From Anaerolineales bacterium (GTDB lineage: Bacteria; Chloroflexota; Anaerolineae; Anaerolineales; UBA6663), in assembly GCA_020845955.1 (NCBI GenBank), contig JADLEU010000369.1, positions 8,462 through 72,461 of the forward strand: a DNA stretch of 64,000 nt, written 5' to 3'. Shown here one piece after another: positions 26,961 through 64,000 of the stretch. The translations under genes and the position numbers were made by a program. A model generated the notes under the pieces. The model was not told the DNA's origin. It saw nothing but the letters and a program-made list of their open reading frames with translations, and ran no database searches. How positions within the stretch are numbered: the stretch's first letter is position 1; each line of letters starts with the position of its first letter.

Positions 26961-26962
26961 CC

Positions 26963-29171: not shown

Positions 29172-29222
29172 AGGCGGCTCCTAGATCATGCAAGACGGAC
29201 GCGGATAGGCGACCATGACCGG

Positions 29223-30923: not shown

Positions 30924-31054
30924 CCCCAATTGTCCTGGCCAGCCCCAAACTTATCCATAAGGCAGGCATAAAACCTCTCAAGCACCTTCTGGCCAATGGG
31001 GCGCTTGCGGACTGGCCCTGCCGCTGAGGCGCGGGCCGCCAAGCTGCGCAGCCC

Positions 31055-32347: not shown

Positions 32348-32837
32348 GGCTGGCAGCTCCGAGGTTACCCCTTTGGGCGGCTAGAAGCACCGCATCGACA
32401 ATATGCTGGTAGCCCGTGCAGCGGCAAAGATTGCCTGAGATTGCCTCGCGCACTTCGGGTTCGGTCGGGTTCGGGTTTTCGGCCAGGAAGGGCACCAGCG
32501 TCATCAGGAAACCGGGGGTGCAAAAGCCGCACTGCAGGCCATGGGCGTCGCGGAAGGCCTGCTGGAGGGGATGCAGCTGGTTTGGGTCGGCTGCCAACCC
32601 CTCGACCGTCAGGAGCGCATGGCCGTTGGCCTGCACCGCGAGCATCAGGCAGGAGCGGACCGGCTGGCCGTCGAACATGACGGTGCAGGCACCACAGACG
32701 CCATGCTCGCAGCCCACGTGCGTGCCGCTGAGACCCAGTTCGTGCCGCAAGAAGTCGCTGAGGAGTAGGCGCGCCTCCACCTCGCGCGCGTAGACTTGGC
32801 CGTTAATGGTGACCGAAATGGCGTGACGGGCATTCAT
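32334..32837 (-). CDS. (2Fe-2S)-binding small subunit of a molybdenum hydroxylase (CoxS-like)
   Basis: Both cluster motifs are present: GCEHGVCGACTV and CGFCTPGF..NLCRCTGY. The junction with the upstream gene is an ATGA overlap. Confidence 0.9.
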   Translation of the reverse strand: MNARHAISVTINGQVYAREVEARLLLSDFLRHELGLSGTHVGCEHGVCGACTVMFDGQPVRSCLMLAVQANGHALLTVEGLAADPNQLHPLQQAFRDAHGLQCGFCTPGFLMTLVPFLAENPNPTEPEVREAISGNLCRCTGYQHIVDAVLLAAQRGNLGAASRELD

Positions 32838-33733
32838 GCTGGGCTCGCAGGGTCGGAGCCACCCCGAGCACGCTCGACAGCCATGGCCAGCGCGCGGCGG
32901 GTGAGCACGCGGGCCAGGTGGCGCTGATAGGCCGGCGTGGCGTGCACATTGCCGGTTGGCGCAATCTCATGCTCGGCAGCGTGGTTGGCCGCGGCCAAGA
33001 AGGCCGCGGGCGTCGGGGGCCGGCCGCGCAGCAACTCGGCCGCCTGGCGCGCGTCCAGCGGGCCGTCGCCGGCGTTCAAGTAGACGAGGCGGGCCTGCAG
33101 GCAGCCGCCGCGCTCGTCCAGGCTGACGACCGCGGCCACACCCAGTATGGCGTAGTCCCCGCGACGCCGCGCAAATTCTAGAAAGGATGTGCCGGTGCGA
33201 GGTGGAAGGGCAGGCAGGGCGATTTCGACCAACATCTCTTCCGGGGTCAGCACTGTGGTGAATAGGCCCTGAAAGAAGTCGGCCGCAGGGATCCAGCGCT
33301 CGCCATGGGCCGACTGCACCCGTAAACGCGCATCGAGCGCCAGCACGATCACGGGCAGTTCCGCGGCCGGATCAGCATGGGCCAGGCTGCCCCCCAGGGT
33401 GCCCCGGCTGCGGATCTGCGGATGAGCGACGCAAGGCATGGCTTCGAAGAGCAGCGGCGCATGCCGCGCGACCAGGGGGTCACGCTCCAACCGCCGCTGG
33501 CGTACCATGGCGCCCAGCCGCAGACCGCCGGCGGGGTCGGGCCAGACGAAATCGAGCTCGGCCAGCGGGTTGACATCAACCAGCAACGCCGCCTGGACCA
33601 GGCGGAAGTTCATGGCCGGCACTAGGCTTTGGCCGCCAGCCAGGAACTTGGCCTCGTCGCCGTGCTCGGCCTTGAGGGCCAACGCGGCCTCCAGCGAATC
33701 CGGGGCAGCGTAGTCGAAGGGCGCCGGTTTCAT
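32834..33733 (-). CDS. FAD-binding medium subunit of a molybdenum hydroxylase (CoxM-like)
   Basis: MKPAPFDY..FLAGGQSLVPAMNFRL and the CO_deh_flav_C-like C-terminus match the family. Confidence 0.9.
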   Translation of the reverse strand: MKPAPFDYAAPDSLEAALALKAEHGDEAKFLAGGQSLVPAMNFRLVQAALLVDVNPLAELDFVWPDPAGGLRLGAMVRQRRLERDPLVARHAPLLFEAMPCVAHPQIRSRGTLGGSLAHADPAAELPVIVLALDARLRVQSAHGERWIPAADFFQGLFTTVLTPEEMLVEIALPALPPRTGTSFLEFARRRGDYAILGVAAVVSLDERGGCLQARLVYLNAGDGPLDARQAAELLRGRPPTPAAFLAAANHAAEHEIAPTGNVHATPAYQRHLARVLTRRALAMAVERARGGSDPASPA

Positions 33734-33739
33734 CGCGGG

Positions 33740-34609
33740 TCAGGCCGCCGGGTTCGTGAGGTCGCCGTACATCTCCGGCCGGCGGTCGCGGTAGAATTGC
33801 CAGGTGTTGCGTACCTGGCGCACCTGGTCGAGATCCAGGTCGCAGACGATCAACTGCTCTTCGCAGTCGCTGGCCTTCGGCGCCCCGGTTGTGAGATCGG
33901 GCAGGTACTGGCCGCGCGGGTCGGTGAAGTATGAGCTGCCATAGTAGTCGTTCGGCCCTAGGTCAGGCTCCCGTCCCACGCGGTTGATGGTGCCGACAAA
34001 GACGCCGTTGAAGATGGCGTGCGCGCGCTGCTCGATGTCCCACAAGTGCATCGATAGCCCGCGTGAGGTGGCCGAAGGGATGAAGATCAGTTCGGCGCCG
34101 TGCAGGCCCAGCAGCCGCGGCCCTTCGGGGAAGTGACGGTCGTAGCAAATATAGACGCCGACGCGACCGGCGGCAGTATCAAAGACCGGGTAGCCCAGGT
34201 TGCCGGGCTTGAAATAAAACTTCTCCCAGAAGCCGGTCACCTGGGGGATATGGGTCTTGCGATACTTGCCCAGGTAGGTGCCGTCGGCGTCGATCACGGC
34301 GGCCGTGTTGAAGTAGACGCCGGTCTGCTCCTCTTCGTACATGGGCACAATCAGCACCAGTTTGTGCCGGCGGGCCAGGTCCTGCATTAGGCGCGTGGTC
34401 GGGCCGTTAGGGATCGCCTCGGTGTAGTTGTAGAACTGCGGATCCTGTACCTGGCAAAAATAAGGGCCGTAGAAGAGCTCCTGAAAACACATCACCTGTG
34501 CCCCCTGGTCGGCAGCCTGCTCGACATAGGCGACGTGCTTGTCAATCATCGACTGCTTGTCGCCAGTCCAGGTGGCCTGCAACAGAGCACCGCGGATCAG
34601 ACGTGACAT
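33740..34609 (-). CDS. Beta-ureidopropionase-type nitrilase-superfamily carbamoyl-amidohydrolase
   Basis: The ATG at 34609 has GAGGGAG upstream. The E-K-C triad contexts are CFQELF, GKYRKTHIP and VYICYDRHFPE. NGPTTRLMQDLARRHKLVLIVPMYEEE closely parallels eukaryotic-type beta-alanine synthase. The 130-aa upstream extension in the track is rejected. Confidence 0.85.
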   Translation of the reverse strand: MSRLIRGALLQATWTGDKQSMIDKHVAYVEQAADQGAQVMCFQELFYGPYFCQVQDPQFYNYTEAIPNGPTTRLMQDLARRHKLVLIVPMYEEEQTGVYFNTAAVIDADGTYLGKYRKTHIPQVTGFWEKFYFKPGNLGYPVFDTAAGRVGVYICYDRHFPEGPRLLGLHGAELIFIPSATSRGLSMHLWDIEQRAHAIFNGVFVGTINRVGREPDLGPNDYYGSSYFTDPRGQYLPDLTTGAPKASDCEEQLIVCDLDLDQVRQVRNTWQFYRDRRPEMYGDLTNPAA

Positions 34610-34630
34610 CGGATCTCCCTCGCTGTGGTT

Positions 34631-34682
34631 CCCCTCAGACCCCTGGCCCCTTGGGTCACAAGGGGCCAGGAGGCCTGAGGGG
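34631..34682 (-). promoter_or_regulatory. Very stable ~22-bp GC-rich stem-loop between the binding-protein gene and the beta-ureidopropionase gene
   Basis: cccctcag-acc-cctggccccttg / ggtca / caaggggccagg-aggc-ctgagggg pairs as 12 bp plus 2 bp plus 8 bp, with a 5-nt loop and small bulges. No U-tract follows on either strand. Confidence 0.5.
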
Positions 34683-34697
34683 CATTCTTGCTGGCGC

Positions 34698-35864
34698 CTA
34701 TTCGCCGCCGGGGTTGAGCTCGACGGTGATGGGGGTGAAGTTGGCGCCGATCGTGTCGCCCTCGAGGCCGTCGAGCGCCTGGGCCGACAGGTCGGTGCGG
34801 GCTGCGCCCTCGTCCGGCTCGGCGGCGAACACCGCCCCCTCGAGCGCGACGCGGACGGTCTGATCGTATAGGGCCTGGTCCAACTGGCCGATGCCGTTGG
34901 GCGAAGGCCAGATGAGTTTGTTGACTTCGTTGAGCTGCCAGCGCATGTGGCTCTCGCCCAGCGTGGGACCAGCATCGAGCACATGCTGCACACAGGCATC
35001 GAAGTTATCGCGGCAGAACATCCAGCCGCGATAGCTGGCGCGCAGGAAGCGCACGGCCACGTCTTCGCTGCCCGGTTGGCCGAGCCAGCTCTCGGTGGTC
35101 CAGACGGCGTCCTGGAGCATGGCGGTGCCGACTTCGTTGTAGTCGATGACGCTCAGGTCACCAGGCTGATAAAGCTCGCCGGTAGCCGGGTTCACCTGCT
35201 CAAGCACCTGGGCATACTCATTGTACGTCATTGCCTCGGCCGCGTCGATCTCATCGGTCAGCAGCAGAGTCATGTCGAAGGGCTGGATCTTGATAGTCAC
35301 ATCGTCGGGGTTTTCAGGATCGATGCCGGCAGCGCGCAGGGCTGCAAAGACCTCGTGCTCGTTGCCGAAGTCCCACACGCCGACGCGCTTGCCGCGCAGA
35401 TCCGCGACGCCACTGATCCCCTTGGACGTGAACGAGACGGAGAGCGTGCCCGAGCGCTGGAAGACCTGGCTGATGTTCACCAGGTCGGCGCCCTGCTCGC
35501 GCGACTGGAGCGCCTTGGGCACCCAGGCCAGGCAGAACTCCGCGCCGCCGTTGGCGCAGACCTGTTGCGGAGTGATCTCGGGCGCGCCTTCGAGGATGGT
35601 GACGTCGAGGCCTTCCGCTTCGTAGTAGCCTTGGCCCAGCGCGGCGTAATAGCCGGCGAACTGGGATTGCGCCACCCATTGCAGCTGCAGCCTAACAGGC
35701 GTCAGCGCGGCGGGGGGCGCCTGAGTTGCGGCCGGCGCTTCCGTTGCGGCCGGCGCTTGCGTTGCGGCCGGCGCCTGGGTGGCGGTGGCGGCCGGGCTGC
35801 AGGCGCTCAACAGCAGGCCGATCAAGGCCATTGCGCCGGCCAGGCGTGAAACAGTGCGGTTCAT
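34698..35864 (-). CDS. ABC transporter substrate-binding lipoprotein, NMT1/THI5-like (NitT/TauT family)
   Basis: MNRTVSRLAGAMALIGLLLSAC is a lipobox signal. It is followed by an (ATQAPA)n linker and then an NMT1-like body (QLQWVAQSQFAGYYAA). A GGAGGAG Shine-Dalgarno sequence precedes the ATG at 35864. Confidence 0.85.
   Translation of the reverse strand: MNRTVSRLAGAMALIGLLLSACSPAATATQAPAATQAPAATEAPAATQAPPAALTPVRLQLQWVAQSQFAGYYAALGQGYYEAEGLDVTILEGAPEITPQQVCANGGAEFCLAWVPKALQSREQGADLVNISQVFQRSGTLSVSFTSKGISGVADLRGKRVGVWDFGNEHEVFAALRAAGIDPENPDDVTIKIQPFDMTLLLTDEIDAAEAMTYNEYAQVLEQVNPATGELYQPGDLSVIDYNEVGTAMLQDAVWTTESWLGQPGSEDVAVRFLRASYRGWMFCRDNFDACVQHVLDAGPTLGESHMRWQLNEVNKLIWPSPNGIGQLDQALYDQTVRVALEGAVFAAEPDEGAARTDLSAQALDGLEGDTIGANFTPITVELNPGGE
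35725..35778 (-). repeat. In-frame 18-bp tandem repeat (3 clean units, degenerate units on both sides) encoding the Ala/Thr/Gln/Pro lipoprotein linker
   Basis: The three units are gttgcggccggcgcttcc, gttgcggccggcgcttgc and gttgcggccggcgcctgg. They translate on the minus strand to the linker ATQAPAATQAPAATEAPAATQAP. Confidence 0.7.
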
Positions 35865-51669: not shown

Positions 51670-52935
51670 TTACGCGAGCGCGGCGTTGACGGCTTCCAGG
51701 GTGGGTTCAATCCTAGCCGGTGGACCGGCGGCGCGCATGGCGGATTTGACATCCTTCAGGCCGCTGCCGGTGTTGAGCACGACAATCGTTTCATCGGCGC
51801 GCACCAGGCCTTGCCGGACGGCCCGAACCAGCCCGGCATGGGCGGCGGCCCCCGCCGGCTCGGCAAACACGGCCGCCTCGCGCCCCAATGTTGAAATGGC
51901 GCCCAGGATCTCATCGTCGCTGACCGTGACGAAGGCGCCGGCGGTCTCACGGACAGCGCGCACGGCGCGCACTCCGTCGCGCGGCAGGTCGACCGAGATG
52001 CTGTCGGCCAGGGTGTTGGCGGCCACCGGCGTGATGGTCTCGGTGCCAGCGGCCCAGGCCTGAGCACAGGCGGCCGAACCCTCGGCCTGCACCGCCATCA
52101 GGCGCGGCATCCGGTCGATCCAGCCCAGCGCAGTCAGGTCCTTGAGGCCCTTGTGCAGGCCGCTGATGATGTTGCCGTCACCGACCGAAACGAAGATACA
52201 GCCAGGCGCCGCCCAACGGTTGCCGGGCGCGCCCACCGCGCGCGCCAACTGATCGCAGATCTCGTAAGCAGCGGTCTTCTTGCCCTCCACGGTAAAGGCG
52301 TTGTAGCCGGTGTTGCGGCAGTACCAACCGAACTCGCGCGCGGCTGCCACCGAAAGATCGAAGGCCTGGTCGTAGTTGCCGCGCACCAGCAGGACGCGCG
52401 CGCCAAAAATCAGCAATTGCGCCACCTTGGCGGGCGGAGCCGTCTCGGGCGCGAAAATCACGGCCGGCTGAGCGACCGCACCGGCCATGCCCGCCAGGGC
52501 AGCCCCGGCATTGCCGGTGGAGGCCGTCACGACAACCTGGGCGCCTAATTCGCGGGCCCGGGTCACCACCACGGCCGAGGCGCGATCCTTGAGAGAGGCG
52601 GTTGGGTTGCGGCCATCGTCTTTGAGCCAGACGTCGCCCAGCCCAAGGCCCTGGCCGAGCCGCTCGGCACGATACAGGGGCGTGCCGCCCACGGCGCGCA
52701 GCGGCGTGCCCTGGCAGCCAGGGTCGCCCACCGGCAGCAGCGGCAGATAGCGCCAAAGTGAGAGGTCTGCCGAGTCTGCCAGCGATGACGGTGAGACAGA
52801 TCGGCCTATAGCAGCATAGTCGAGCACCACATCGAGATTGCCGCTGTCGCCGTGCCGGGGACAAACGTAACCATCGAAGTCGGGTCCATATTCTGCGGCG
52901 CACAGCGAACAGCGATAGCCAAGGAAGTGGGTCAA
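51670..52935 (-). CDS. thrC: Threonine synthase
   Basis: The N-terminus has a zinc-ribbon-like YRCSLC..CPRHG. NPTASLKDRAS gives the PLP-Lys context, and STGNAGAALA is present. The TTG start overlaps the upstream TGA (TTGA). Confidence 0.85.
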   Translation of the reverse strand: MTHFLGYRCSLCAAEYGPDFDGYVCPRHGDSGNLDVVLDYAAIGRSVSPSSLADSADLSLWRYLPLLPVGDPGCQGTPLRAVGGTPLYRAERLGQGLGLGDVWLKDDGRNPTASLKDRASAVVVTRARELGAQVVVTASTGNAGAALAGMAGAVAQPAVIFAPETAPPAKVAQLLIFGARVLLVRGNYDQAFDLSVAAAREFGWYCRNTGYNAFTVEGKKTAAYEICDQLARAVGAPGNRWAAPGCIFVSVGDGNIISGLHKGLKDLTALGWIDRMPRLMAVQAEGSAACAQAWAAGTETITPVAANTLADSISVDLPRDGVRAVRAVRETAGAFVTVSDDEILGAISTLGREAAVFAEPAGAAAHAGLVRAVRQGLVRADETIVVLNTGSGLKDVKSAMRAAGPPARIEPTLEAVNAALA

Positions 52936-54068
52936 GGCCGAGCCTGTGCACTGTCCAGTTCTTGCCGGGCGCGGGCCCGGCTGGCCGCATCGGGGGCCAG
53001 CTGCGCGGCCTGCTCGAAATCGGCCTGTGCCTCTTCGCGCCGGCCGAGCGAGCGCCGGACGACGCCGCGCCAGTAGTGAAGGTTGTGCTGACCTGGCTGC
53101 AGGGCAAGGGCGGCGCCGAATTCGGACAGCGCCTCTTCGCGCCGCCCTTGCTGCATGAAGCTGAAGGCCATTTGGCTATGCAGCTGCGCGCGTGGGCCGG
53201 CGGATAGATCGCCCATCAGCGCCCCGCGAGCGGCGCGCTCGGCCTGGGCGTAGTGCCGCTGGTCAAAGGCCAGTTGGGCCCGGGCGAACTGCAGCAAACT
53301 GTGATTGGGGTCGAGCGCAGCCGCGCGGCCGAGATAGCGCTCGGCCAGCGCCGGCTCGCCGCTGTCGAGGTAGAACAACGCCAGGTGCACCAACGGCGTG
53401 GCGCTGCCTGGCTGCGCGTCGACCACGGCTTCGAGCCGGCGGCGCGTCTCCACGAGCGCCGCCGGCTGGCGCGCCAGCCGGCGGGCAACAGCCCAGGAGC
53501 TGCGGTTGAGCCGCCACAGCGAGACCAGCAGGGTGAGATGGGCTATGGCGGTGGCCTGAGCATACGGCGCAATGCTGAAGTCGTAGATTGTCACCCAGTC
53601 GCCGAAACCGATGAACGTAAACGCCGGGTACCAGAGTAGGGCGTACAGAAGCTGCTGGCGCGCGAAACTCTCCAGGATCTCAGACCAAATGCCCCTGCGC
53701 ACGCGCAGCAGTAGCGCGATTGGCAGCAGGCCCAGCGCAATCGAGACGAGATTGCCGCTCAGCGCAATCCACCAATCTTGGAGCGGCGTGAAATTTCCGC
53801 TGGGGATGATGTAGCCCCAGAAGACGCGCCACTGGAATTCAGCTACCCGCCCGCCCACTTGCCAGGTCGCCAGGGCGTGCCCAGCCTCGTGCAGAAAAAC
53901 ACCGAGCGGAATGAAGACGAAGAAGGCCAACTCATTGGCCAGGCGGCGGTCGCTGGCGGTCACCTCGGCATCCCAGAAGCCGCGCCAGCCGCGCGCCAGC
54001 CGCAGCAGCACCTGGCCGCCGCGGAACAGGTACAGGAGGGAGATGAGGTCGAAAAGTGACGTAAGCAA
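52932..54068 (-). CDS. M50 (site-2-protease-like) membrane metallopeptidase fused to C-terminal TPR repeats
   Basis: An HExxH motif lies within a TM helix (FLHEAGHALATW). Further TM helices follow, then ~4 TPR-like repeats (ALFYLDSGEPALAERYLGRAAALDP and others). The start is uncertain: I chose the TTG at 54068 because the rest of the 525-aa track ORF overlaps proS. Confidence 0.6.
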   Translation of the reverse strand: MLTSLFDLISLLYLFRGGQVLLRLARGWRGFWDAEVTASDRRLANELAFFVFIPLGVFLHEAGHALATWQVGGRVAEFQWRVFWGYIIPSGNFTPLQDWWIALSGNLVSIALGLLPIALLLRVRRGIWSEILESFARQQLLYALLWYPAFTFIGFGDWVTIYDFSIAPYAQATAIAHLTLLVSLWRLNRSSWAVARRLARQPAALVETRRRLEAVVDAQPGSATPLVHLALFYLDSGEPALAERYLGRAAALDPNHSLLQFARAQLAFDQRHYAQAERAARGALMGDLSAGPRAQLHSQMAFSFMQQGRREEALSEFGAALALQPGQHNLHYWRGVVRRSLGRREEAQADFEQAAQLAPDAASRARARQELDSAQARP

Positions 54069-54075
54069 GCGGTGT

Positions 54076-55857
54076 CTAGGGCGCTTCGGGATACGGCACC
54101 GGCCCGACGCCGCTGGCGATGGCGTCGTACAGCGCCGTGATCTCAGCCTGCAGGCGAGACACGGCCTGGCCGAGCGGGACGATCGCGCGGTCGGGGGCGG
54201 TGCGCCGCTTAAGCTCGACGCCGCCTTGCTTGAGCGAGCGCTCGCTAACCGTGACACGCAAGGGTAAGCCGATGAGGTCGGCGTCTTTGAACTTGACACC
54301 GGGACGCTCGTCACGGTCGTCAAAGAGGACTTCGACGCCAGCCGCCTGGAGGCGGGCATATAGCGCCTCGGCTTCGCGCTGGGCCTGACCGGCCGCGTCG
54401 GGCAGGAGCACCAGGTGCACCTGGTACGGCGCCACGGTGATTGGCCAAGCCAGCCCGTCGGCGTCGTGGTGCGCCTCCGCCACGCAGGCCAGCAGCCGGC
54501 CGCTGCCAATGCCGTAGGAACCCATGATCACCGCGCGCTGGCTGCCGCCGCGGTCAAGGAACGTCGCACCCATAGCGTCGGTATAGCGCGTGCCCAACTT
54601 GAAGATATTGCCGACCTCCACACCGCGCGAGACGCGCAGGGCGTGCCCGCACACAGGGCAGGCGTCGCCCTCCCCGGCCGCAGCAATATCGGCCACGATG
54701 GCGGCCGTAAAGTCACGGCCGTAATTCACGCCGCGCGTGTGGTAGCCCGGCTCGTTGGCGCCGCCGACCAGGTTGGGCGAGGTTGGGATGGCCTCGTCGA
54801 CCACGACCAACACTCGGCGCGGGTCAAGCCCGACCGGCGAAGCATAGCCCGGCACGGCGCCCACCGCCCGAATTTCTTCCTCCCGGGCGGGACGCAACTC
54901 CTTGGCCTTGACGGCGTTGGCCAGCTTGGTTTCGTTGACTTCCATATCGCCGCGCACCAGCGCTAAGACAAAGCGGTCCACGGCGCTGTCGCCCTGGGGC
55001 ACGCTGGCGATCAGGAACACCGCTTTGGCTGTGCGGGCCTTGGGTACCCCCAGAAACTCGGCCAGCGCCTCGATGGTGGCCACGCCGGGCGTGGCCACCC
55101 GCTCCAGCGGCTGGGGAGCTTCGGCCGCGGTGGCCGGCTTGCGGAAGCGCGCGATCTGCCGGTTGGCCGCATAGCCACAGTGGTCGCAGAGCAGCAGCGT
55201 GTCCTCGCCAATGGGGGTGAGGTACATGAACTCATGTGCCAAGCTGCCGCCCATCATGCCAACGTCGGACTTGACGGTGATGGTCGGCAGCGCACAACGG
55301 TTGAAGATGTTGAAATAGGCCTGGTAGTGAGCCCGATACTGACGGTCGAGGCTGGCCTCATCGGCGTCGAGGCTGTAACTGTCGAGCATGGTGAACTCGC
55401 GCACGCGGATGAGGCCGGCGCGCGGCCGCGGGTCGTCGCGCCACTTGGTCTGGATGTGGTACACCAGCATGGGCAGTTGGCGGTAGGACTGTACCTCGCG
55501 GCGCGTCAGGTCGGCGACGACCTCCTCATGGGTCATGGCCAGGGCCATGTCGCGGCCGGATTTGTCCTTCAGGCGCCCCATCTCCGTGCCGATCTGGTGC
55601 CAGCGGCCGGTCTCCTTCCAGATGTCGGCCGGGTGCACGACGGGCATGGTCACCTCCTGCCCGCCGATGGCGTTGATCTCCTCGCGCATGATATTTTCGA
55701 TCTTGGTCAAAGAACGCCGGGCTAGACCCAGATAGCTAAAGATGCCGGCGCCAAGCTGGCGGATGAAGCCAGCGCGCACCAGCAATTGGTGGCTGACGAC
55801 TTCGGCCTCGGCCGGCGCCTCGCGCAAGGTCTGGCCGAATTGGTGACTCATTCGCAT
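54076..55857 (-). CDS. proS: Proline--tRNA ligase (bacterial type with INS editing domain)
   Basis: FGQTLREAPAEAEVVSHQLLVRAGFIRQLGAGIFSYL..VHPADIWKETGRW matches the family. The ~590-aa length fits the bacterial-type enzyme. A GAGGAA Shine-Dalgarno sequence lies 7 nt upstream of the ATG at 55857. Confidence 0.95.
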   Translation of the reverse strand: MRMSHQFGQTLREAPAEAEVVSHQLLVRAGFIRQLGAGIFSYLGLARRSLTKIENIMREEINAIGGQEVTMPVVHPADIWKETGRWHQIGTEMGRLKDKSGRDMALAMTHEEVVADLTRREVQSYRQLPMLVYHIQTKWRDDPRPRAGLIRVREFTMLDSYSLDADEASLDRQYRAHYQAYFNIFNRCALPTITVKSDVGMMGGSLAHEFMYLTPIGEDTLLLCDHCGYAANRQIARFRKPATAAEAPQPLERVATPGVATIEALAEFLGVPKARTAKAVFLIASVPQGDSAVDRFVLALVRGDMEVNETKLANAVKAKELRPAREEEIRAVGAVPGYASPVGLDPRRVLVVVDEAIPTSPNLVGGANEPGYHTRGVNYGRDFTAAIVADIAAAGEGDACPVCGHALRVSRGVEVGNIFKLGTRYTDAMGATFLDRGGSQRAVIMGSYGIGSGRLLACVAEAHHDADGLAWPITVAPYQVHLVLLPDAAGQAQREAEALYARLQAAGVEVLFDDRDERPGVKFKDADLIGLPLRVTVSERSLKQGGVELKRRTAPDRAIVPLGQAVSRLQAEITALYDAIASGVGPVPYPEAP

Positions 55858-55871: not shown

Positions 55872-56840
55872 TTAGGCTCCGCGCTCGCCGCGGATGTAGG
55901 GCAACCCCAGTGCCGCTGGCGCCCCCAGGCGCTTACGCAGCGCCTCGCGCGACCCGATGATCAAGACAACGATGGTAAATAGATACGGCAGCATCTGCAG
56001 GAAGAAGCCCAGGTACGGGTTGAAGAAGAAGGGGTTGCGCAAGCCCAGCAGGGCCTGTGGTCCCTGGATGTCTAGAATCATGCGGCGCAGCGCGCCAAAG
56101 GTGTAGGCTCCAAAGGCGGCCCGCCACGGGTCCCACTGGGCAAAGATGACCAACCCGATCGCGATCCAACCTTGGCCCGAAGTTGTGAGCTCACTGAACC
56201 AACCCGGCGAAATCGCCAGGCTGATAGTGCCACCGGCCAGGCCGGCCAGCGTGCCGCCAACGAAGACGTAGAGGTAACGCAGGCGATAGACGTTTAGCCC
56301 CATGGCATCGGCCGCGGTCGGGTTTTCGCCCACGGCCCGCAGGTGCAGGCCGGGCCGGGTAAAGTGGATGTAGGCCCAGACCGCGGGCACCAGCAGGTAG
56401 CCGACATAGACCATGATGCTGTGGTTGGTGAAGAAGATCGGCCCCAAGATTGGAATGGCCGAGAGCACAGGAACGGACTGCACGGGCAGGAGTGAAATCG
56501 CGCCTGCCTTATTCAACCCTTCGCCGAAGACTAGGCTCAGGCCGGTGCCCAGGAAGGTAAGGGCCAAACCGCTGACAACCTGGTCGGCTTGGAAATGGAT
56601 GGTAACGACGCCGTGCAGCAGCGCCAGGAGGCCGGCCACCAGCATGGCGACCAACAATCCCAGGAACCCATTGCCGGTCGTCACCGTAACGCCAAAAGCG
56701 CTCATGGCGCCGATCAACATCATCCCCTCAAGCCCCAGGTTCATGACCCCAGACCGCTCGGTGATGATTTCGCCAATGGTGGCGAACAGCAGGACGGTGC
56801 CGCTGGCGACACCGGCCTGCAGGATGATGATCGGATCCAA
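55872..56840 (-). CDS. ABC transporter permease (BMP/nucleoside-type, YufQ/NupQ-like)
   Basis: The TTG at 56840 is preceded by AAGGAGAGGAG. The product LDPIIILQAGVASGTVLLFATIGEIITERSGVMNLGLEGMM is typical of the family. The track's longer ATG start overlaps the upstream gene by 65 nt. Confidence 0.85.
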   Translation of the reverse strand: MDPIIILQAGVASGTVLLFATIGEIITERSGVMNLGLEGMMLIGAMSAFGVTVTTGNGFLGLLVAMLVAGLLALLHGVVTIHFQADQVVSGLALTFLGTGLSLVFGEGLNKAGAISLLPVQSVPVLSAIPILGPIFFTNHSIMVYVGYLLVPAVWAYIHFTRPGLHLRAVGENPTAADAMGLNVYRLRYLYVFVGGTLAGLAGGTISLAISPGWFSELTTSGQGWIAIGLVIFAQWDPWRAAFGAYTFGALRRMILDIQGPQALLGLRNPFFFNPYLGFFLQMLPYLFTIVVLIIGSREALRKRLGAPAALGLPYIRGERGA

Positions 56841-56856
56841 GTCGCGCTCCTCTCCT

Positions 56857-57990
56857 TCAGGCCGGTTCCGCGTCCACACGCACCAGCCGAACGCGGTAGC
56901 GCAGCAGGACTTCGCTGGCAATCAGCGTGAACAAGATAATACCCTGGATCAACCGCGGGACACCAGCCGGCTGGATTTCGCGCCCGGCCAGGATCAGGCC
57001 GCCAAACAGGACCGATACCGGGGCGACGACCAACGGGTTGAGCTTGGCCAGCCAGGCAATGATAATGCCGGTGAAGCCATAGCCCGGCGAGATGGAGGTC
57101 TGCAAGCGGTGGACCACGCCGGAGATCTCCGACATACCCGCCAGGCCAGCCAATGCCCCCGAAAGCATCATGACCAGAACAGTGTTGCGGACGATGTTGA
57201 CGCCGGCGTAATGGGCCGCACGCGGGTTGTCGCCTACCAACCTGATCTCAAAGCCCCAAAGGCTGCGGTACAGGATGTACCACACCACGCCGGCAGCCAC
57301 AAGCGCGAAGGCCAGTCCCAGGTGGGTGGTCAGCCCCCGAAACAGCGGCACCTGGCTGGCATAGTCAGCCAGGCGCGGTAGCCAGGCAGCCCGTTGAAAG
57401 GTCGGGCTCATCTGAAAACCGCCTTCGCTCCAGACTGCAAAAACAAAGAAGTTCACCAGCGAGATAGCGACATAGTTCAACATCAGTGTGGTGATGACTT
57501 CGTTGACGCGCAGGGTGGCCTTGAGCAGGCCGGGGATGGCGCCCCACAGCGCTCCGAAGGCCATACCAGCGACCAGCATGGCTGGAATGGTCACCCAGCG
57601 CGGAGCTTCGATTGGAACGATGGGCGCCAGAACGACGACACTAGCTCCCAGCGCGCCCATGAAGAACTGGCCTTCGGCCCCGATGTTCCAAAGCTTCATC
57701 TGAAAGGCAACGGCACAGGCCAGGCCGACCAGGATCAGCGGCGTGGCCTTGACCAGCGTATCGGAGAACACCCCCAAATTGCCAAAGGCCGCGCGGCCAA
57801 TGTGGGCATAAGCGGCGACCGCGTCGCCGCCCACGATCTCGAGGATCACCGCGCCCAGGAGCAGTGCGACGAGAATGGCGCCCAGCGAGACCAGCGGGCT
57901 CAGCCAGCGAGGCGCCTCCAGACGCCGGTCAACTTGCAGGCGATAGGGCAGCCGCCAGCGCCGCGGCACGGCGGTTGCGGTGGTCGCCAT
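56857..57990 (-). CDS. ABC transporter permease (BMP/nucleoside-type, YufP/NupP-like)
   Basis: The ORF is a multi-TM protein with FQMKLWNIGAEGQFFMGA, the family pattern. Confidence 0.85.
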   Translation of the reverse strand: MATTATAVPRRWRLPYRLQVDRRLEAPRWLSPLVSLGAILVALLLGAVILEIVGGDAVAAYAHIGRAAFGNLGVFSDTLVKATPLILVGLACAVAFQMKLWNIGAEGQFFMGALGASVVVLAPIVPIEAPRWVTIPAMLVAGMAFGALWGAIPGLLKATLRVNEVITTLMLNYVAISLVNFFVFAVWSEGGFQMSPTFQRAAWLPRLADYASQVPLFRGLTTHLGLAFALVAAGVVWYILYRSLWGFEIRLVGDNPRAAHYAGVNIVRNTVLVMMLSGALAGLAGMSEISGVVHRLQTSISPGYGFTGIIIAWLAKLNPLVVAPVSVLFGGLILAGREIQPAGVPRLIQGIILFTLIASEVLLRYRVRLVRVDAEPA

Positions 57991-57991
57991 G

Positions 57992-59590
57992 TCAGCCTCC
58001 TTCCCCCGCCGGGGCCGCGTAGGCGCGTTTCCCGCCGGTCATCATCAGTCCGATAGCCTCCGGATCGTGTTCAGTGACCTCACCGGCCACTTCGCCCTCG
58101 TATATAACGACGATGCGATCGCTGAGGGCGAAGATCTCCTCCAGTTCTTCCGAGATGAGCAACACCGCGGCCCCGGCTTCGCGTTGCGCCAGCAGGAGCC
58201 GCTGGACTCCCTCGATGGCCCCGACGTCCAGGCCGCGGGTAGGCTGCACGGCGATCAAGAGCTGAGGCCGCACCGAAAGCTCGCGCGCCAGTATGACGCG
58301 TTGCAAGTTGCCGCCGGAGAGGAAGCGCGCCGGAGTCTTGACGCTGGGTGCCAGGATTTGATACTCGGTCTTGAGCGTCTCAGCGGCCGCCTGAGCCGTG
58401 GTGTAGTTCAGGCTCCAACCTTGCGCCAGGGGCGCATGGCGGTACTGCTTCATGATCACGTTGTCCGTGATCGTCAAGTTAGGCGCGCTACCCACATGGG
58501 TACGGTCTTCCGGCACATGGGCAACCCCTTGCTCGATCAGGGCGCGCGGTGGCGAGTTGGTGACTTCTAGGCCATGCACCAGGAGCCGCCCAGACGTGCA
58601 TCGGCGCAGCCCGGTGATCACCTCGGCCAGCTCGGCCTGCCCGTTGCCGGCCACGCCCGCCACGCCGACGATCTCGCCGGCCCGCACGGTCACCGAGAAA
58701 TTGCGCAGTGCCGGCCGGCCCTTGTTGTTTTCGGCGCACACTTGATCCACCGTCAGCACGACTTCACCGGGCGCCTGAGGTCTCTTCTGCAAGTCAAACA
58801 GGACCGTCCGCCCGACCATCAAGCGTGCCAACTCGGGGATTGTGGTCTCGTTGGCGCGGACCCCAGCGGCCGTGACGCGCCCCTGCCGCAGAACGGTGAC
58901 ACGATCGGCGATCGCCATCACCTCGTTGAGCTTGTGGCTGATGAAAACAATCGACTTGCCTTCGGCCACCATCGAGCGCAGCGTGGCAAACAACCCCTCG
59001 ATCTCGTGGGGCGCCAGGACGGCGGTGGGCTCGTCCATGACAAGGATCTGCACGCCCCGATAGAGCATTTTGAGAATCTCAACACGCTGCTGCTCGCCCA
59101 CCGAGAGCTGCCAGATCTTGGCCTGGGGCGCGACGCTCAGGCCAAAGCGCTGGCCGAGGTCGGCCACGCGCCGGTCATGCTCAGGCAGCCGCAGCCAAAA
59201 GCGCGGCGTGGCAAGGCCCAGGAGCACATTTTCAGTCACGCTCTGGCTCTGCACGAGCGTGAAGTGCTGATGGATCATGCCCAACCCGTGAGCGATGGCA
59301 TCACGCGGCGAATTGAACGCCACCGGCTGGCCATGCAGGAGAATGCTGCCGGCCTCCGGTTTGTATAGGCCAGCCAGGACGCTCATGAGCGTGCTCTTGC
59401 CGGCGCCGTTCTCGCCCAGCAAGGCATGGATCTCGCCGGGCCGCAAATCAAAGTCAACGTGGTCGTTGGCCAACACGCCGGGAAAACGCTTGACGATGCC
59501 GCGCATTTCGACGGCGTTTTGGTTGACCGCCAGGTTGGCGTCAACCGCGGGTATGGCCGCGTTTGGGTGTTCAACCATGAGCTTGCCCAT
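57992..59590 (-). CDS. ABC transporter ATP-binding protein with duplicated NBDs (sugar/nucleoside type)
   Basis: The first Walker A is GENGAGKST and the second NBD has GVAGNGQ. Two signature regions are present (LSVGEQQRVEI and LSGGNLQRVIL). The start is ATG 59590 or 59578. Confidence 0.9.
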   Translation of the reverse strand: MGKLMVEHPNAAIPAVDANLAVNQNAVEMRGIVKRFPGVLANDHVDFDLRPGEIHALLGENGAGKSTLMSVLAGLYKPEAGSILLHGQPVAFNSPRDAIAHGLGMIHQHFTLVQSQSVTENVLLGLATPRFWLRLPEHDRRVADLGQRFGLSVAPQAKIWQLSVGEQQRVEILKMLYRGVQILVMDEPTAVLAPHEIEGLFATLRSMVAEGKSIVFISHKLNEVMAIADRVTVLRQGRVTAAGVRANETTIPELARLMVGRTVLFDLQKRPQAPGEVVLTVDQVCAENNKGRPALRNFSVTVRAGEIVGVAGVAGNGQAELAEVITGLRRCTSGRLLVHGLEVTNSPPRALIEQGVAHVPEDRTHVGSAPNLTITDNVIMKQYRHAPLAQGWSLNYTTAQAAAETLKTEYQILAPSVKTPARFLSGGNLQRVILARELSVRPQLLIAVQPTRGLDVGAIEGVQRLLLAQREAGAAVLLISEELEEIFALSDRIVVIYEGEVAGEVTEHDPEAIGLMMTGGKRAYAAPAGEGG

Positions 59591-59664
59591 CCAGGCCTGG
59601 GCCAGCGGCAGGCCGCCGGCCCAGGCCCAGCACATTCTTACGAACTAGCGGCAGCTGCCAGGAG

Positions 59665-60939
59665 CTAGTTGCCTCCTAGGGCAGGCAGCTCATTGACGAT
59701 GCCGTCGGCCCACCAATACATGCAGTACTGGCACTCCAGGCCGGGTGCGCCGGGCGGGAACTGATCCAGGTCAGCCTGTTCGAAGTGCTCGCCCTCCGGC
59801 ACGATGACGTTGCCCTGGTTGTCCATGATCGGCCCTTTGAAGACGTCAAAGCGGGTGAACTCGCCCGCCAGGGCAGCGGCCAGCGTGTCGCGCACCAACT
59901 GCACGTCCTCATCCGGCAGGTCCGCCACGCCCGGCTGCGGGGTCTGGCCTTCCATGAAGCCATACAGGCCCATGCCGCCCGCGTCGGCGTCGAAGTATTG
60001 GAAGCCGGGCGTGTACGTGCCCGCGCGGATCCCCTCGACCATGGCGGCGTAGATCGGGCCCCAGGTCCAGTACGGCGTAGTCAGGCAGCGTTCAACCTTG
60101 CAGTTGCCGAACCAGTCGTAGTTGACGCCCCACTTGCCTTTCTCTTGGGCCACGTCGCTGGCCGCCGGCGTATCAGCGCCCGTGAAGACCACCTGGGCGC
60201 CGGCGTCAAACAAGGAGGCCGCCGCTTCCTTCTCGATGATGGGATCGTGCCAGGTGTTGATCCAGCGCACATCCATGGTGCACTCGGGACAGGTGCGCTT
60301 AGCGCCGAGCATGATGGCATTGCCCAGGCGCAGCTCTTCCGGAATGGGGAAGGTGGCCATGTAGCCAAGGCGCGGGTTGCCGTCGACCTTAGCGCGCGAG
60401 CCGGCCAGCATGCCGGCCATATACTTGAAGACCTCCATGGCCCCAAACATGTTGCCGTAGTTAGTGCCGTTGGACTTGTAGCCGGTCAAGTGGATAAACA
60501 TCTGATCGGGGAATTCCTCGGCCACAATCGCCATCGGATCCATGTAGCCAAAGGAGGTGCCCACGATCAGGTCAAAGCCCTTGCGCGCCAGGCTGCGGAA
60601 GACCTGCTCGGAGTCGGCGCCCTCCGGAACCAGCTCGATGTAGGCGACGTGCGTGTCAGGCACGTTTTCCTGGACGTAGACCAGGCCCTCGTATTGCGCC
60701 TGGCTCCAGCCGCCATCGTCGTGGGGACCGATCAAGACCATCCCAACGTTGAACTTGCCCGCCTCAATGTCGGGGATCTGCAGCCCGCCGGTTTCAGGCG
60801 CGGTGGTCGGCGGCACTGCGGTGGCCTGGGGCGCCGAGGTAGCCTGCGGGGCTGCTGTCTCGGTCGCTGGCGTGCAGGCGCCCGCCATCATCGCCAGGAT
60901 GGTCAGGAGACCTGCCAAGCGCGTTAGTTTTGCTGACAT
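59665..60939 (-). CDS. BMP-family ABC transporter substrate-binding lipoprotein (nucleoside/purine-binding type)
   Basis: The lipobox is LAMMAGAC, followed by a Pro/Thr/Ala linker and a BMP-like body (VGMVLIGPHDDGGWSQAQYEGL). A strong GGAGGAG Shine-Dalgarno sequence precedes the start. Confidence 0.9.
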   Translation of the reverse strand: MSAKLTRLAGLLTILAMMAGACTPATETAAPQATSAPQATAVPPTTAPETGGLQIPDIEAGKFNVGMVLIGPHDDGGWSQAQYEGLVYVQENVPDTHVAYIELVPEGADSEQVFRSLARKGFDLIVGTSFGYMDPMAIVAEEFPDQMFIHLTGYKSNGTNYGNMFGAMEVFKYMAGMLAGSRAKVDGNPRLGYMATFPIPEELRLGNAIMLGAKRTCPECTMDVRWINTWHDPIIEKEAAASLFDAGAQVVFTGADTPAASDVAQEKGKWGVNYDWFGNCKVERCLTTPYWTWGPIYAAMVEGIRAGTYTPGFQYFDADAGGMGLYGFMEGQTPQPGVADLPDEDVQLVRDTLAAALAGEFTRFDVFKGPIMDNQGNVIVPEGEHFEQADLDQFPPGAPGLECQYCMYWWADGIVNELPALGGN

Positions 60940-61046: not shown

Positions 61047-61988
61047 CTATGGCACCACCCAGGTGCCCGTTTCACCCGCCAGCGCCCGGCCGATATTCTC
61101 GGGGTTGGTGATCAGGGCTTGCTGGCCGCCGCGCTCCAGGAACGAGATGATGGCGTCGATCTTCGGCCCCATGCTGCCCTTTTGAAAATGGCCTTCGGAT
61201 TGATACTGCCGCGCCTCGGCCAGGGTCAGGCGATCGAGCCAGCGCTGGTTGGGCTTGTTGAAGTTCAGGGCCACCTTTTCCACGGCGGTGGAGATCACGA
61301 ACAGGTCCGCCGGCAGGGTGTTCGCCAGCAGCGCGGAGGCGTAGTCCTTGTCGATGACGGCCTCCACCCCGACCAAATTGCCATTCTCATCCTCGACGAC
61401 GGGAATGCCTCCGCCGCCAACACCGATGACGACGAAGCCCCTGTCGACCAGGGCCAGGATCGCATCGCGCTCGACAATGCGCTGCGGTTTGGGCGAGGCC
61501 ACCACGCGCCGCCAGCCTCGACCGGCGTCGTCGACCATACTCCAGCCTTCCGACTGTATCTTGGCGCGGGCCTCGACTTCGCTCATAAACGAGCCGATCG
61601 GCTTGGTGGGGTTCTGGAAGGCGGGATCGCCGCGGTCGACCAGCACCTGGGTAACCACGGTAACGGCCTGACGCGCCATCCCCCGGTGCTTGAACTCGTT
61701 GTGCAGCGCCTTCTGGAACATGTAACCGATAGCCCCCTGTGTGTCGGCGCCGCAGGAATCCAGGGGAACCTCGTGCAGCTCGTGCCGACCCAGCTCGGAT
61801 CGGCGCAGGATAAAACCGACCTGCGGCCCATTCCCATGGGTCACGACGACCTTCCAGCCGGCGGCCAGCATATCGGCAATATGGTGCATCGACTCGGCCG
61901 CGGCCACATACTGGTCTGGCACGGTCCGGCGTTTCTCGTCCTTGATCAGGGAGTTGCCTCCCACCGCAACAACGGCGACGTTGCTCAT
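61047..61988 (-). CDS. arcC: Carbamate kinase
   Basis: The ATG at 61988 gives MSNVAVVAVGGNSL..VVVTHGNGPQVG. The start is 5 nt after the upstream stop. The 86-aa extension in the track is rejected. Confidence 0.9.
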   Translation of the reverse strand: MSNVAVVAVGGNSLIKDEKRRTVPDQYVAAAESMHHIADMLAAGWKVVVTHGNGPQVGFILRRSELGRHELHEVPLDSCGADTQGAIGYMFQKALHNEFKHRGMARQAVTVVTQVLVDRGDPAFQNPTKPIGSFMSEVEARAKIQSEGWSMVDDAGRGWRRVVASPKPQRIVERDAILALVDRGFVVIGVGGGGIPVVEDENGNLVGVEAVIDKDYASALLANTLPADLFVISTAVEKVALNFNKPNQRWLDRLTLAEARQYQSEGHFQKGSMGPKIDAIISFLERGGQQALITNPENIGRALAGETGTWVVP

Positions 61989-61993
61989 CGGCG

Positions 61994-62974
61994 TCAGGCC
62001 ATCGTCAACGCCATGACCGCCTTCTGAACATGCAGGCGGTTCTCGGCTTCGTCGTAGACCACCGACTGGGGCCCGTCGACAACTTCGTCGGTGACCTCCA
62101 GGTTGCGGTCGGCCGGCAGACAGTGCATATAGATGCAGTCCGCGCGCGCCCGGCTCATGCGGCGCTGGTCGGTGATCCAGGAGTGATACTTCTCGATAGC
62201 GGTCCTGCCCTCGTCGTTGGTGGTCGTGGTCAGGAGCGGTCCCCACGACTTGGGATAGACCACGTCGGCGCCCTTGAAAGCCGCGTCCATGTCGTCGGTC
62301 ACGTCGAAGCCGACGTGATAGCGGCGGGCGTTGTCGCGCGCCTGATCCATGATCTCGGGCATGAGCTTGAACTCCGGCGGATGCGCCAGCACGACGTCAC
62401 AGCCAAAGCGCGTGAGCTGCAGGATGAGCGATTGGGGCACGGAGATGGGCTTGCTGTAGGACACGGCATAGGCCCAGGAAACCACGACCCTTTTGCGGCG
62501 CAGGTCGCGGCCCTTGTTCTCAATGATGGTCATCAGGTCGGCTAGGCATTGGAAAGGGTGGTAGATGTCGCACTGCATGTTGAGCACCGGGATGCGGCTG
62601 GCCCGGGCGACGTCATTGATGTACTGATTGCCAAACTGCCAGTCGCACTGGCGGATGGCGATGCCATCGAAGTAGCGGCCAAAGATCTCGCCGATTTCCT
62701 TGGCGGTGTCGCCGTGCGCGATCTGGGTCGTCTGTGAATCGATGAAGGCAGCGTGTCCGCCTAATTGGGCCATGCCGGCCTCGAATGAGCCGCGCGTGCG
62801 CGTGCTGGTGAAGAAGAACAGCATGGCCAGGGCCTTGTCGCGCAGGTAAGCGTGCGGCTCGCCGAGGGCCCGCTTGCGCTTGAGGTCGAAGGCCACGTCC
62901 AGGACGGTCTCAACCTCGTCTTTACTGAAGTCGAGGTCGCCGATGAAGTCGCGGCCCCGCAGGTGCGTTTGCAT
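61994..62974 (-). CDS. YgeW-like (non-canonical) carbamoyltransferase
   Basis: The carbamoyl-phosphate motifs STRTR, HPFQ and HCLPAD are present. Blocks shared with E. coli YgeW as I recall it are TQIAHGDT, NMQCDIYHPFQCLADL, WAYAVSYSKPISVPQS, TRFGCDVVLAHP, VVYPKSWGP and IYMHCLPAD. The ornithine/aspartate-specific loops are absent. Confidence 0.8.
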   Translation of the reverse strand: MQTHLRGRDFIGDLDFSKDEVETVLDVAFDLKRKRALGEPHAYLRDKALAMLFFFTSTRTRGSFEAGMAQLGGHAAFIDSQTTQIAHGDTAKEIGEIFGRYFDGIAIRQCDWQFGNQYINDVARASRIPVLNMQCDIYHPFQCLADLMTIIENKGRDLRRKRVVVSWAYAVSYSKPISVPQSLILQLTRFGCDVVLAHPPEFKLMPEIMDQARDNARRYHVGFDVTDDMDAAFKGADVVYPKSWGPLLTTTTNDEGRTAIEKYHSWITDQRRMSRARADCIYMHCLPADRNLEVTDEVVDGPQSVVYDEAENRLHVQKAVMALTMA

Positions 62975-63044
62975 TCGTGTCAGTCTCCTTATGTGTTGGT
63001 CTAGCGGCAGAACGCCGCGCGTATATCTGGTTCCTCAGCCAAGC

Positions 63045-64000
63045 TCAGCCCGGCAGCACGACCGGAACGTGCGCACGGCGCGTGACATCGACCAGGCCCA
63101 GGTCGGAGATGCGCAGTTCCGGAATCACGGCCAGCGCCAGCAGGCTCAGCTGCATGTTGGCGTTGTTCAGGGCACAGCCGCAAGCACGGAACTCGGCCAG
63201 CACGGCCTCGGCCTTGCGCGCCACCACCTCGGCCCGCTCGTCCGACATCACGCCGCCGATCGGCAGTTCCACGACCGCCTGCACTTGCCCGGCGCGCACC
63301 ACCAGCATCCCCCCACCTCGCTCGGCTAGCGCGTTCGCGGCCAGCGCCATAGCCTCGTCGTCGGTGCCCACCACCAGCATGTGATGCGAGTCGTGGGCAA
63401 CGGTCGAGGCGACGGCGCAGGGCACGTTAAAGCCAAAGCCCTGCACGAATCCCGCCTGGACGCCCCCCGTGGCGCGGTGGCGCTCGACCACGGCCACCTT
63501 GCAGATGTCTTGGGCGGGGTCGGCGTGCACTTCCCCAGCGTTGGCCCGCAGGTCACACACGGCGTGCCGGGTGGGCGCCTGGTTCTCGATCACGCCAATG
63601 ACGTTGGCCCGCACCGTGCCCGCTGCCCGGTCGGCTGGCGCCGGGACGACAAAGTCGCCGGGGGTGAGCGCCCGGGCCAAGTGCACCGACTGTTTGACCT
63701 CGGCCGGGTATTCAAAGATCGGCAGATCGACGCGCCATTGGCCGTGCTCGGCGATAACGTCTCCGCCGGCCACGACGACCTCGGCCTGAAAATCGGCAAG
63801 ATCGGAGGCCAGCACGATGTCGGCATAGCGGCCGGGAGCGATCTGGCCCACATCGGCGTTGACGCCGAAATGCTCGGCAGCGTTCAGCGTCATCATCTGA
63901 ATGGCCGTGATCGGCTTCAGGCCCTGCGCAATCGCGTGCCGCAGAACGCGGTCCATGTGACCCGCTTGCGCCAGGGTGCCCGAGTGCGAATCGTCGGTGC
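63045..64000 (-). CDS. ade: Adenine deaminase (amidohydrolase), C-terminal two-thirds; 5' end is beyond the window
   Basis: The frame stays open to base 64000 (..TDDSHSGTLAQAGHMDRVLRHAI). AIQMMTLNAAEHFG, VVERHRATGG, FGFNVPCAVASTVAHDSHHMLVVGTDD and LPIGGVMSD match the Ade family. Confidence 0.85.
   Translation of the reverse strand, partial: TDDSHSGTLAQAGHMDRVLRHAIAQGLKPITAIQMMTLNAAEHFGVNADVGQIAPGRYADIVLASDLADFQAEVVVAGGDVIAEHGQWRVDLPIFEYPAEVKQSVHLARALTPGDFVVPAPADRAAGTVRANVIGVIENQAPTRHAVCDLRANAGEVHADPAQDICKVAVVERHRATGGVQAGFVQGFGFNVPCAVASTVAHDSHHMLVVGTDDEAMALAANALAERGGGMLVVRAGQVQAVVELPIGGVMSDERAEVVARKAEAVLAEFRACGCALNNANMQLSLLALAVIPELRISDLGLVDVTRRAHVPVVLPG

Follow-up and report, generated by a model that had tools for sequence, protein, structure and literature searches.

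A short YgeW-like carbamoyltransferase paired with carbamate kinase in Anaerolineae and its probable role in reductive purine degradation

Background

What is a carbamoyltransferase doing between an adenine deaminase and a carbamate kinase, next to an importer, in a bacterium of the Anaerolineales? The question is raised by a 64,000-nucleotide stretch of contig JADLEU010000369.1 (the window, by which we mean the whole stretch analysed), where a gene for a short carbamoyltransferase (CT) lies downstream of a partial adenine deaminase gene (ade) and is followed by genes for a carbamate kinase (CK) and an ATP-binding cassette (ABC) importer of the BMP type. Databases name the CT as ornithine carbamoyltransferase (OTC) or N-acetylornithine carbamoyltransferase (AOTC), and both names are misannotations. 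The sequence and its neighbourhoods make it fairly likely that the short CT instead does the job of YgeW in reductive (2,8-dioxopurine) degradation of purines and urate, so that CT and CK would be the Chloroflexi counterpart of YgeW/YqeA.

The reductive pathway was reconstituted in two studies of 2025. Urate is converted to 2,8-dioxopurine (XdhD/XdhAC), followed by reduction (YgfK) and ring openings (SsnA, HyuA) that lead to 2,3-diureidopropionate. YgeW then removes one ureido group by phosphorolysis, YgeY hydrolyses the other, and YgeX delivers pyruvate. In one of the two studies the E. coli proteins YgeW and YqeA together made ATP in vitro. The initial annotation of this DNA had called the physiological substrate of the YgeW family unsettled, a view now outdated, as both studies show phosphorolysis of 2,3-diureidopropionate. 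The pathway and a Chloroflexota variant of its cluster are already known: a paper in Life Metabolism noted that the uricolytic cluster around SsnA takes a variant form in Chloroflexota, with a reductase of the F420 type. That paper identified 'YgeW' by Pfam PF00185 alone, counting any such protein near SsnA. One of the 2025 studies searched for YgeW with an identity cut-off of 63%; a survey at that level would miss the family described here, since it is only 34% identical to YgeW. In the literature searched we found no description of a distinct minimal CT family, of its broad distribution or of its alternative partners.

Results

The CT shares the second-substrate side of YgeW

Superfamily and OTC motif definitions were taken from the review of Shi et al. 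By these definitions the CT is a member of the transcarbamylase superfamily that includes aspartate carbamoyltransferase (ATC) and OTC, with the motifs STRTR, HPFQ and HCLP and with matches to OTCace_N (6.7e-38) and OTCace (5.3e-37). What ties it to YgeW is a set of five blocks common to the two proteins in alignment A1, namely QIAHG[DE]T, QCDIxHPxQ, WAYxxSYxKPxSVPQ, YPKSW and YMHCLPAD. Among the 120 closest members of the CT family, the blocks QIAHG[DE][TS], QCD[IV]xHPxQ, WAYxxSYxKPxSVPQ, YPKSW and HCLPAD are each found in 106-120 sequences. All five occur in the YgeW proteins of E. coli and E. faecalis and four of the five in P0166, a third YgeW-type sequence, and they are not found in AOTC or in the two OTCs compared. 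Likewise, only CT and YgeW have three inserted residues in the proline-rich loop, which AOTC and OTC lack.

The determinants of the better-known subfamilies are missing. The ornithine motif DxxxSMG occurs in none of the 120 family members, and its place in the 240s loop is taken by YPKSWGP. The alignment also has no DGNN-type segment of OTC in the CT, nor the extended 80s loop of AOTC; the 80s loop is short, as in OTC and YgeW. The initial annotation, which had read YgeW-specific blocks and a missing ornithine loop from the sequence, was right on both counts.

These blocks sit in a protein that is otherwise far from E. coli YgeW. The short CT has 326 amino acids against 396 and lacks the 14-residue N-terminal helix and the C-terminal helix of YgeW, together with the PQRPA insert, a 19-residue insert in the 240s loop and the ISGVS insert. 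Its 120s loop is much shorter, with most of the extension gone, and is merely about 4 residues longer than that of OTC. The features that the review lists for the YgeW (YTCase) equivalog are all absent from the CT in alignment A1, and the protein ends in ENRLHVQKA, as OTC and AOTC types do. Specificity in the transcarbamylase superfamily is known to be shaped by the 120s and 240s loops.

None of the curated subfamily models claims the protein. The CT falls below the cut-offs for OTC (NF001986, 260.7 against 306; TIGR00658, 246.1 against 280.85), AOTC (253.5 against 288), putrescine carbamoyltransferase (PTC; TIGR04384, 223.6 against 500), YgeW (NF005538, 200.9 against 453; TIGR03316, 192.9 against 500, both missed by far) and ATC (NF002032, 128.2 against 263). 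Pairwise identity is 37% to the OTC of Pyrococcus furiosus, 37% to the AOTC of Xanthomonas, 34% to E. coli YgeW, 28% to ArgI and 26% to PyrB.

Xanthomonas AOTC (ArgF', PDB 3kzc/3l02) resembles the CT in length, in KSWG of the 240s loop, in a proline-rich loop containing K-P and in the ENRLHVQKA terminus. It differs in its long 80s loop, which carries both the Trp that binds substrate and the Glu92 region, and in having HCLPLR where the CT has HCLPAD; the neighbours of the CT, moreover, are not arginine biosynthesis genes. The same AOTC is the top Foldseek match in the PDB (TM 0.75) of an AlphaFold2 model of the CT built from a 58-sequence alignment (pLDDT 66.8), which ranks AOTC and OTC (0.76) alike and so carries no information on subfamily or knot. 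A single-sequence model (pLDDT 37.7) was unusable. It is the signature of the proline-rich-type loop, SYSKPISVPQ, and nothing in the models, that points to a putative trefoil knot in the CT; knotted transcarbamylases combine such a loop with an extended 120s loop, whereas that of the CT exceeds the OTC loop by only about 4 residues.

A compact clade of Anaerolineae

A protein with 100% identity to the CT is on record from an Anaerolineales metagenome-assembled genome. A library scan with one genome per species found relatives of the CT at no fewer than 536 genomic places. The best 80 of these at least 536 places, all from genomes of different species, are 77-87% identical to the CT and come nearly all from Anaerolineae. 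In a representative library clustered at 50% identity, the next full-length relatives fall to 54% and 47%. In a neighbour-joining tree of 72 sequences rooted with PyrB, the short clade has a bootstrap of 100%. YgeW joins the P0125 family, a second short form of 333 amino acids from gammaproteobacterial metagenome-assembled genomes (Woeseiaceae and Xanthomonadales), at 90%, and the short clade joins these two at 60%. The neighbours of the resulting group in the tree are the AOTC clade and further short enzymes that are uncharacterised. Clustering inside OTC or PTC, the outcome that the initial annotation had named as counting against its proposal, is not seen: the CT lies outside both. The same annotation had noted that the protein is shorter than E. 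coli YgeW at both termini and might represent a separate subfamily, which agrees with the alignment and with the clade of its own in the tree. The CT is part of a compact, strongly conserved clade of Anaerolineae, with identities of 77-89%, that has the second-substrate side of YgeW without its extra helices and loops.

Related loci carry genes of the reductive urate pathway

The 80 loci of the best relatives were annotated by tblastn with a reference panel of E. coli pathway proteins and proteins of the first Chloroflexi loci. Many of the loci are incomplete at their ends, and the counts that follow are over all 80. The commonest gene order is 8-oxoguanine-deaminase-like, Ade, GntR, YgeY, CT, CK, Bmp, ATPase, permease, permease, ThrC-like and CysK-like pyridoxal phosphate (PLP) enzyme. 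CK is present in 72 loci, GntR in 54, YgeY in 51, Ade and the 8-oxoguanine-deaminase-like gene in 47 each, the ThrC-like gene in 41, a second carbamoyltransferase (CT2) in 22, the CysK-like PLP enzyme in 21, SsnA in 8 and YgfK in 3. A Bmp homologue stands 3' of CK in about 47-50 loci, while ABC ATPase homologues (35-79% identical) were found in 47 searched loci and permease homologues in 44. ArgB, ArgC, ArgE and ArgH occur in none of the 80 loci, and arginine deiminase was not seen in those annotated with Pfam.

With a CK gene after the CT in 72 of the 80 loci, each from the genome of a different species, the pairing is far beyond chance. In the window the CK scores above both carbamate kinase models (NF009007, 410.8 against a cut-off of 266; TIGR00746, 375.8 against 358.25) and is closer to E. 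coli YqeA (49% identity) than to AllK (39%). The spacing of only 5 nucleotides between CT stop and CK start suggests that the two are probably co-translated. A YqeA-like kinase that follows the CT is one of the features shared with the E. coli YgeW/YqeA system.

Among the upstream partners, YgeY clears the threshold of its equivalog model (TIGR03526, 476.8 against 321.5), as does the 8-oxoguanine deaminase (691.5 against 532); the idea that the latter might be SsnA was rejected, with 691 bits to NF006055 and 143 to the SsnA model. Either YgeY or CT2 precedes the CT in 65 of 67 loci. In some loci the remaining pathway genes join the cluster. The order in loci L020 and L023 is XdhFAD, XdhFeS, XdhMo, GntR, YgeY, CT, CK, ThrC-like, PALP460, YgfK and SsnA, and locus L004 encodes a luciferase-like reductase of the F420 type together with a genuine SsnA (507.8 against 444). 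The cluster of the Woeseiaceae short family reads YgfK, SsnA, YgfM, XdhD, PALP, YgeY, CT, CK and PALP. Judged by homology, the genes of the short-CT clusters are those of the reductive urate pathway, and YgeY, SsnA, YgfK and XdhD flank the CT in its relatives as they do YgeW. Where E. coli YgeW clusters have HyuA and YgeX, short-CT clusters have Ade, the 8-oxoguanine-deaminase-like gene, the BMP importer and other PLP enzymes.

The Ade of the window is represented by its C-terminal part, which scores 248 bits on TIGR01178 over model positions 250-550 and is 72% identical to the Ade of locus L004 and 34% to E. coli AdeD. Full-length orthologues score 526.6 (locus L001, above the cut-off of 472.5) and 464.8 (L004, just below it). 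Direct adjacency of ade and CT is unusual and recurs in one of the 47 related loci with Ade upstream (L014); the usual order is Ade, GntR, YgeY (or CT2), CT. The initial annotation had described ade, CT and CK as a tight trio. That description holds for the conserved CT-CK pair and overstates the tie to ade, which usually lies two or three genes upstream. The further proposals of that annotation, a pairing with CK and a link to purine catabolism and uptake, are supported by the conserved neighbourhood.

Two small genes intrude on this arrangement in some relatives. In 20 loci YgeY and CT are separated by a gene of the histidine phosphatase superfamily (for example L053:9442-9966), and in 9 a gene for a four-helix-bundle protein of the '23S rRNA intervening sequence' type is inserted between CT and CK (for example L053:11036-11542).

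Proposed function

We propose that the short CT uses the same substrate as YgeW, or a closely similar one, and we infer that the pathway with its upstream steps exists in this organism. A purine or nucleoside would enter through the BMP-type ABC importer, and Ade would turn adenine into hypoxanthine, feeding the pathway. Molybdenum hydroxylases and reductive steps encoded elsewhere would lead to the diureido acid. The short CT would then transfer one carbamoyl group to phosphate, with 2,3-diureidopropionate or the mono-ureido product derived from it as donor, and CK would convert the carbamoyl phosphate and ADP to ATP, NH3 and CO2.

Several observations weigh against this assignment. Phosphorolysis of 2,3-diureidopropionate is known for E. 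coli YgeW only and for no member of the short clade, and, according to a commentary, there is still disagreement over which ureido group YgeW takes off. The identity of the CT to YgeW is no higher than that to P. furiosus OTC or to AOTC, its C-terminal helix is not of the YgeW type, and its sister relation to YgeW has a bootstrap of 60% only. The window holds no YgeY, SsnA, YgfK, F420-type reductase or 8-oxoguanine deaminase, which would have to be encoded elsewhere in the genome; CT2 and GntR were not found in its 64 kb either. Short-CT clusters, finally, usually come without HyuA and DpaL (YgeX) and with two other PLP enzymes, so that the lower pathway, and hence the exact substrate, may differ.

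This last point leads to the alternative that survives best, although we consider it unlikely: the short CT may act on another ureido compound (such as a mono-ureido diaminopropionate alone, ureidoglycine, oxalurate or N-carbamoyl-beta-alanine) and so mark a lower branch with different chemistry in the anaerobic breakdown of purines, or of pyrimidines. Its 120s and 240s specificity loops are much shorter than those of YgeW, and short-CT clusters of two phyla share ThrC-like and CysK/SbnA-like PLP enzymes and usually have no HyuA or DpaL. The ThrC-like protein of the window scores just over the cut-off of TIGR00260 (171.4 against 167.1) and below that of NF006050 (259 against 303). In 41 of the 80 loci, homologues that are 55-66% identical come after CK or after the ABC genes, and in L093, a urate operon of Woeseiaceae, one at 51% identity comes directly after CK. 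The ThrC-like protein is unlikely to be a threonine synthase and may stand in for DpaL/YgeX. That it might itself be a diverged DpaL was considered and rejected, with 56 bits to the DpaL model against 259 to threonine synthase.

The CysK/SbnA-like protein is 80% identical to the product of a PALP gene located two genes upstream of the CT in locus L004, where the order is PALP460, luciferase-like, YgeY, CT. It occurs in 21 of the 80 loci, has counterparts at 43% identity in loci L093 and L094, and scores below all cysteine synthase (cysK) cut-offs; one guess is that it catalyses beta-elimination on an amino-ureido-propionate. In the window, both PLP enzyme genes lie further downstream, with unrelated genes between them and the importer.

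The partners upstream of the CT bear on the same alternative. In about 21-22 of the 80 loci (L067, L070-L079 and L082-L090, with the example of L076:8970-9923), the gene directly upstream of the short CT encodes CT2, which resembles aspartate transcarbamylase (ATCase). CT2 of L076 has 317 amino acids, is 36% identical to PyrB and scores above the cut-off of TIGR00670, and it carries HSLP and VQP where HPLP and RxQ are expected, which is the signature of 'pseudo-ATCase group 3'. CT2 and YgeY are nearly mutually exclusive: 47 loci have YgeY only, 15 CT2 only, 3 both and 2 neither. An ATCase-like enzyme in place of YgeY (21 loci) implies two ureido substrates split between two carbamoyltransferases, and the second ureido group may be cleaved off phosphorolytically by CT2. 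A tentative, rather improbable extension would have the whole module (short CT, CK and the ThrC-like and CysK/SbnA-like enzymes, usually without HyuA and DpaL) form a lower branch of anaerobic purine degradation with a chemistry of its own, in which the short CT has a substrate other than that of YgeW. Against a different substrate stand the five blocks lining the YgeW-type site, which are nearly invariant, and the co-occurrence of YgeY, SsnA, YgfK and XdhD as in the characterised pathway. Use of the YgeW substrate, or one close to it, remains our preferred assignment.

It is much less likely that the CK mainly serves carbamoyl phosphate made by AllF, AllG and AllH, the FdrA module located about 31 kb away (22.8-30.9 kb), with the CT incidental. 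In E. coli, AllFGH is an oxamate carbamoyltransferase encoded in one operon with the kinase AllK (allantoin fermentation). That system likewise couples ureide phosphorolysis to a carbamate kinase and has AllF/G/H homologues in the window; it differs in its unrelated fold and three subunits. Here no kinase gene adjoins AllFGH, whereas the E. coli genes share their operon with allK, and the CK beside the CT is the sole one in the 64-kb window. Nevertheless, none of the 72 related loci in which CK follows the short CT has AllF, AllG or AllH within 10 kb, the three are absent from all 80 loci, and in the window they are not adjacent to ade, CT and CK. The 5-nucleotide spacing and the closer kinship of the CK to YqeA than to AllK also favour the CT as its partner, and further CK genes may exist beyond the window. 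The suggestion of the initial annotation that the CK might serve the FdrA module in addition has little in its favour.

The AllF/G/H region itself (19967..34999, minus strand) contains no CK. Besides AllF, AllG and AllH it encodes Mo, FAD and FeS subunits like those of XDH, a CN_hydrolase of the carbamoylase type, a class-III aminotransferase, an amidase and a cyclase. It looks like a second module for ureide or hydantoin degradation and could supply or complement steps missing beside the trio. Its D-hydantoinase, which is 38% identical to E. coli HyuA and lies outside the trio, is a possible candidate for the upstream ring-opening step.

Least probable of all is that the CT is an OTC or AOTC, either as the catabolic partner of CK in a pathway of the arginine deiminase type or as an anabolic OTC that, like the one of Pyrococcus, receives its substrate from a carbamoyl-phosphate synthetase resembling CK: the database names, the top NCBIfam match (an OTC model), the best PDB sequence match (P. 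furiosus OTC, 1pvv) and the shared logic of ureido-group phosphorolysis followed by ATP formation through CK speak for it, but every OTC and AOTC cut-off is missed, DxxxSMG, the DGNN-type segment and the long AOTC 80s loop are all absent, no arg genes occur in the 80 loci and no arginine deiminase in those annotated with Pfam, so that arginine biosynthesis and arginine deiminase readings are rejected on motifs, model cut-offs and neighbourhood together. A study of Thermoflexus had interpreted such an adjacent OTC-CK pair as an arginine deiminase pathway; that genome has a second OTC gene elsewhere, and the organism consumed only adenine and adenosine from its medium, an observation in line with our preferred assignment.

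Layout of the window

The coordinates of the features are collected in Table 1. The genes for Ade, CT, CK and the BMP importer all lie on the minus strand, in that order, and the layout given in the initial annotation agrees with their coordinates, domains and sequence. Beyond the CT-CK spacing given above, the gaps are 70 nucleotides from ade stop to CT start and 107 from CK stop to Bmp start; the ade reading frame is open up to the edge of the window. The N-terminus of the Bmp binding protein resembles a putative lipoprotein signal.

Table 1 Features of the window, listed from ade downstream and then by module
Feature	Coordinates	Strand	Evidence
Adenine deaminase (ade), partial, C-terminal 317 codons	63045..64000	-	Pfam Adenine_deam_C 4.7e-59; TIGR01178 model positions 250-550
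ade-CT spacer, 70 nt	62975..63044	-	AAGGAG ribosome-binding site, read from the sequence
Short YgeW-like carbamoyltransferase (CT), 326 aa	61994..62974	-	OTCace_N and OTCace domains; motifs STRTR, HPFQ, HCLPAD
Carbamate kinase (CK), 313 aa	61047..61988	-	NF009007 and TIGR00746 above cut-offs
BMP/PnrA-type substrate-binding protein of ABC importer	59665..60939	-	Pfam Bmp 5.5e-31
ABC ATPase, two ABC domains	57992..59635	-	ABC_tran matched twice, 1.9e-49
Two ABC permeases	56857..57990 and 55872..56921	-	BPD_transp_2
ThrC-like PLP enzyme	51670..52935	-	PALP 7e-71
CysK/SbnA-like PLP protein, 470 aa	44510..45922	-	Sequence likeness to PALP gene of L004
D-hydantoinase (HyuA-like)	21358..22779	-	TIGR02033 562.8 (cut-off 393)
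AllF	29223..30929		FdrA module
AllG	27927..29171		FdrA module
AllH	22843..23760		FdrA module

An Rfam scan of the window, including the ade-CT spacer, gave no match. A scan for promoters and terminators around the trio gave nothing exceeding shuffled expectation, and none in the ade-CT spacer. GC content is high across the whole window, at about 0.64-0.69.

Compared with its relatives, the cluster of the window looks rearranged or interrupted, because proS and a TPR/M50-like gene (52932..55857, minus strand) separate the permeases from the ThrC-like gene, which directly follows them in most relatives; GntR and YgeY are also missing. Elsewhere in the window and unrelated to the finding, 13153..18444 (minus strand) encodes a 1763-residue protein in which seven or eight GAF domains are combined with a GGDEF domain at the C-terminus.

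Discussion

It was not until 2025 that the step by which YgeW and YqeA yield ATP in anaerobic urate degradation was elucidated, in gut bacteria. With relatives of the short CT at 536 or more places, the best 80 of them nearly all in Anaerolineae, the pathway would extend to environmental Chloroflexi. Anaerolineae are abundant in digesters, sediments and aquifers.

Recognition of a separate, minimal YgeW-like family would also correct a widespread misnaming as OTC, AOTC or 'arginine deiminase pathway'. As a natural minimal scaffold, the short CT may help to learn which parts of YgeW determine specificity, and the alternation of YgeY with the second carbamoyltransferase offers a comparative handle on which ureido group goes first. 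Phosphorolysis by CT2, if true, would give the pseudo-ATCases a function, their first: where such an enzyme replaces YgeY, both ureido groups would end as carbamoyl phosphate, doubling the ATP gained per purine.

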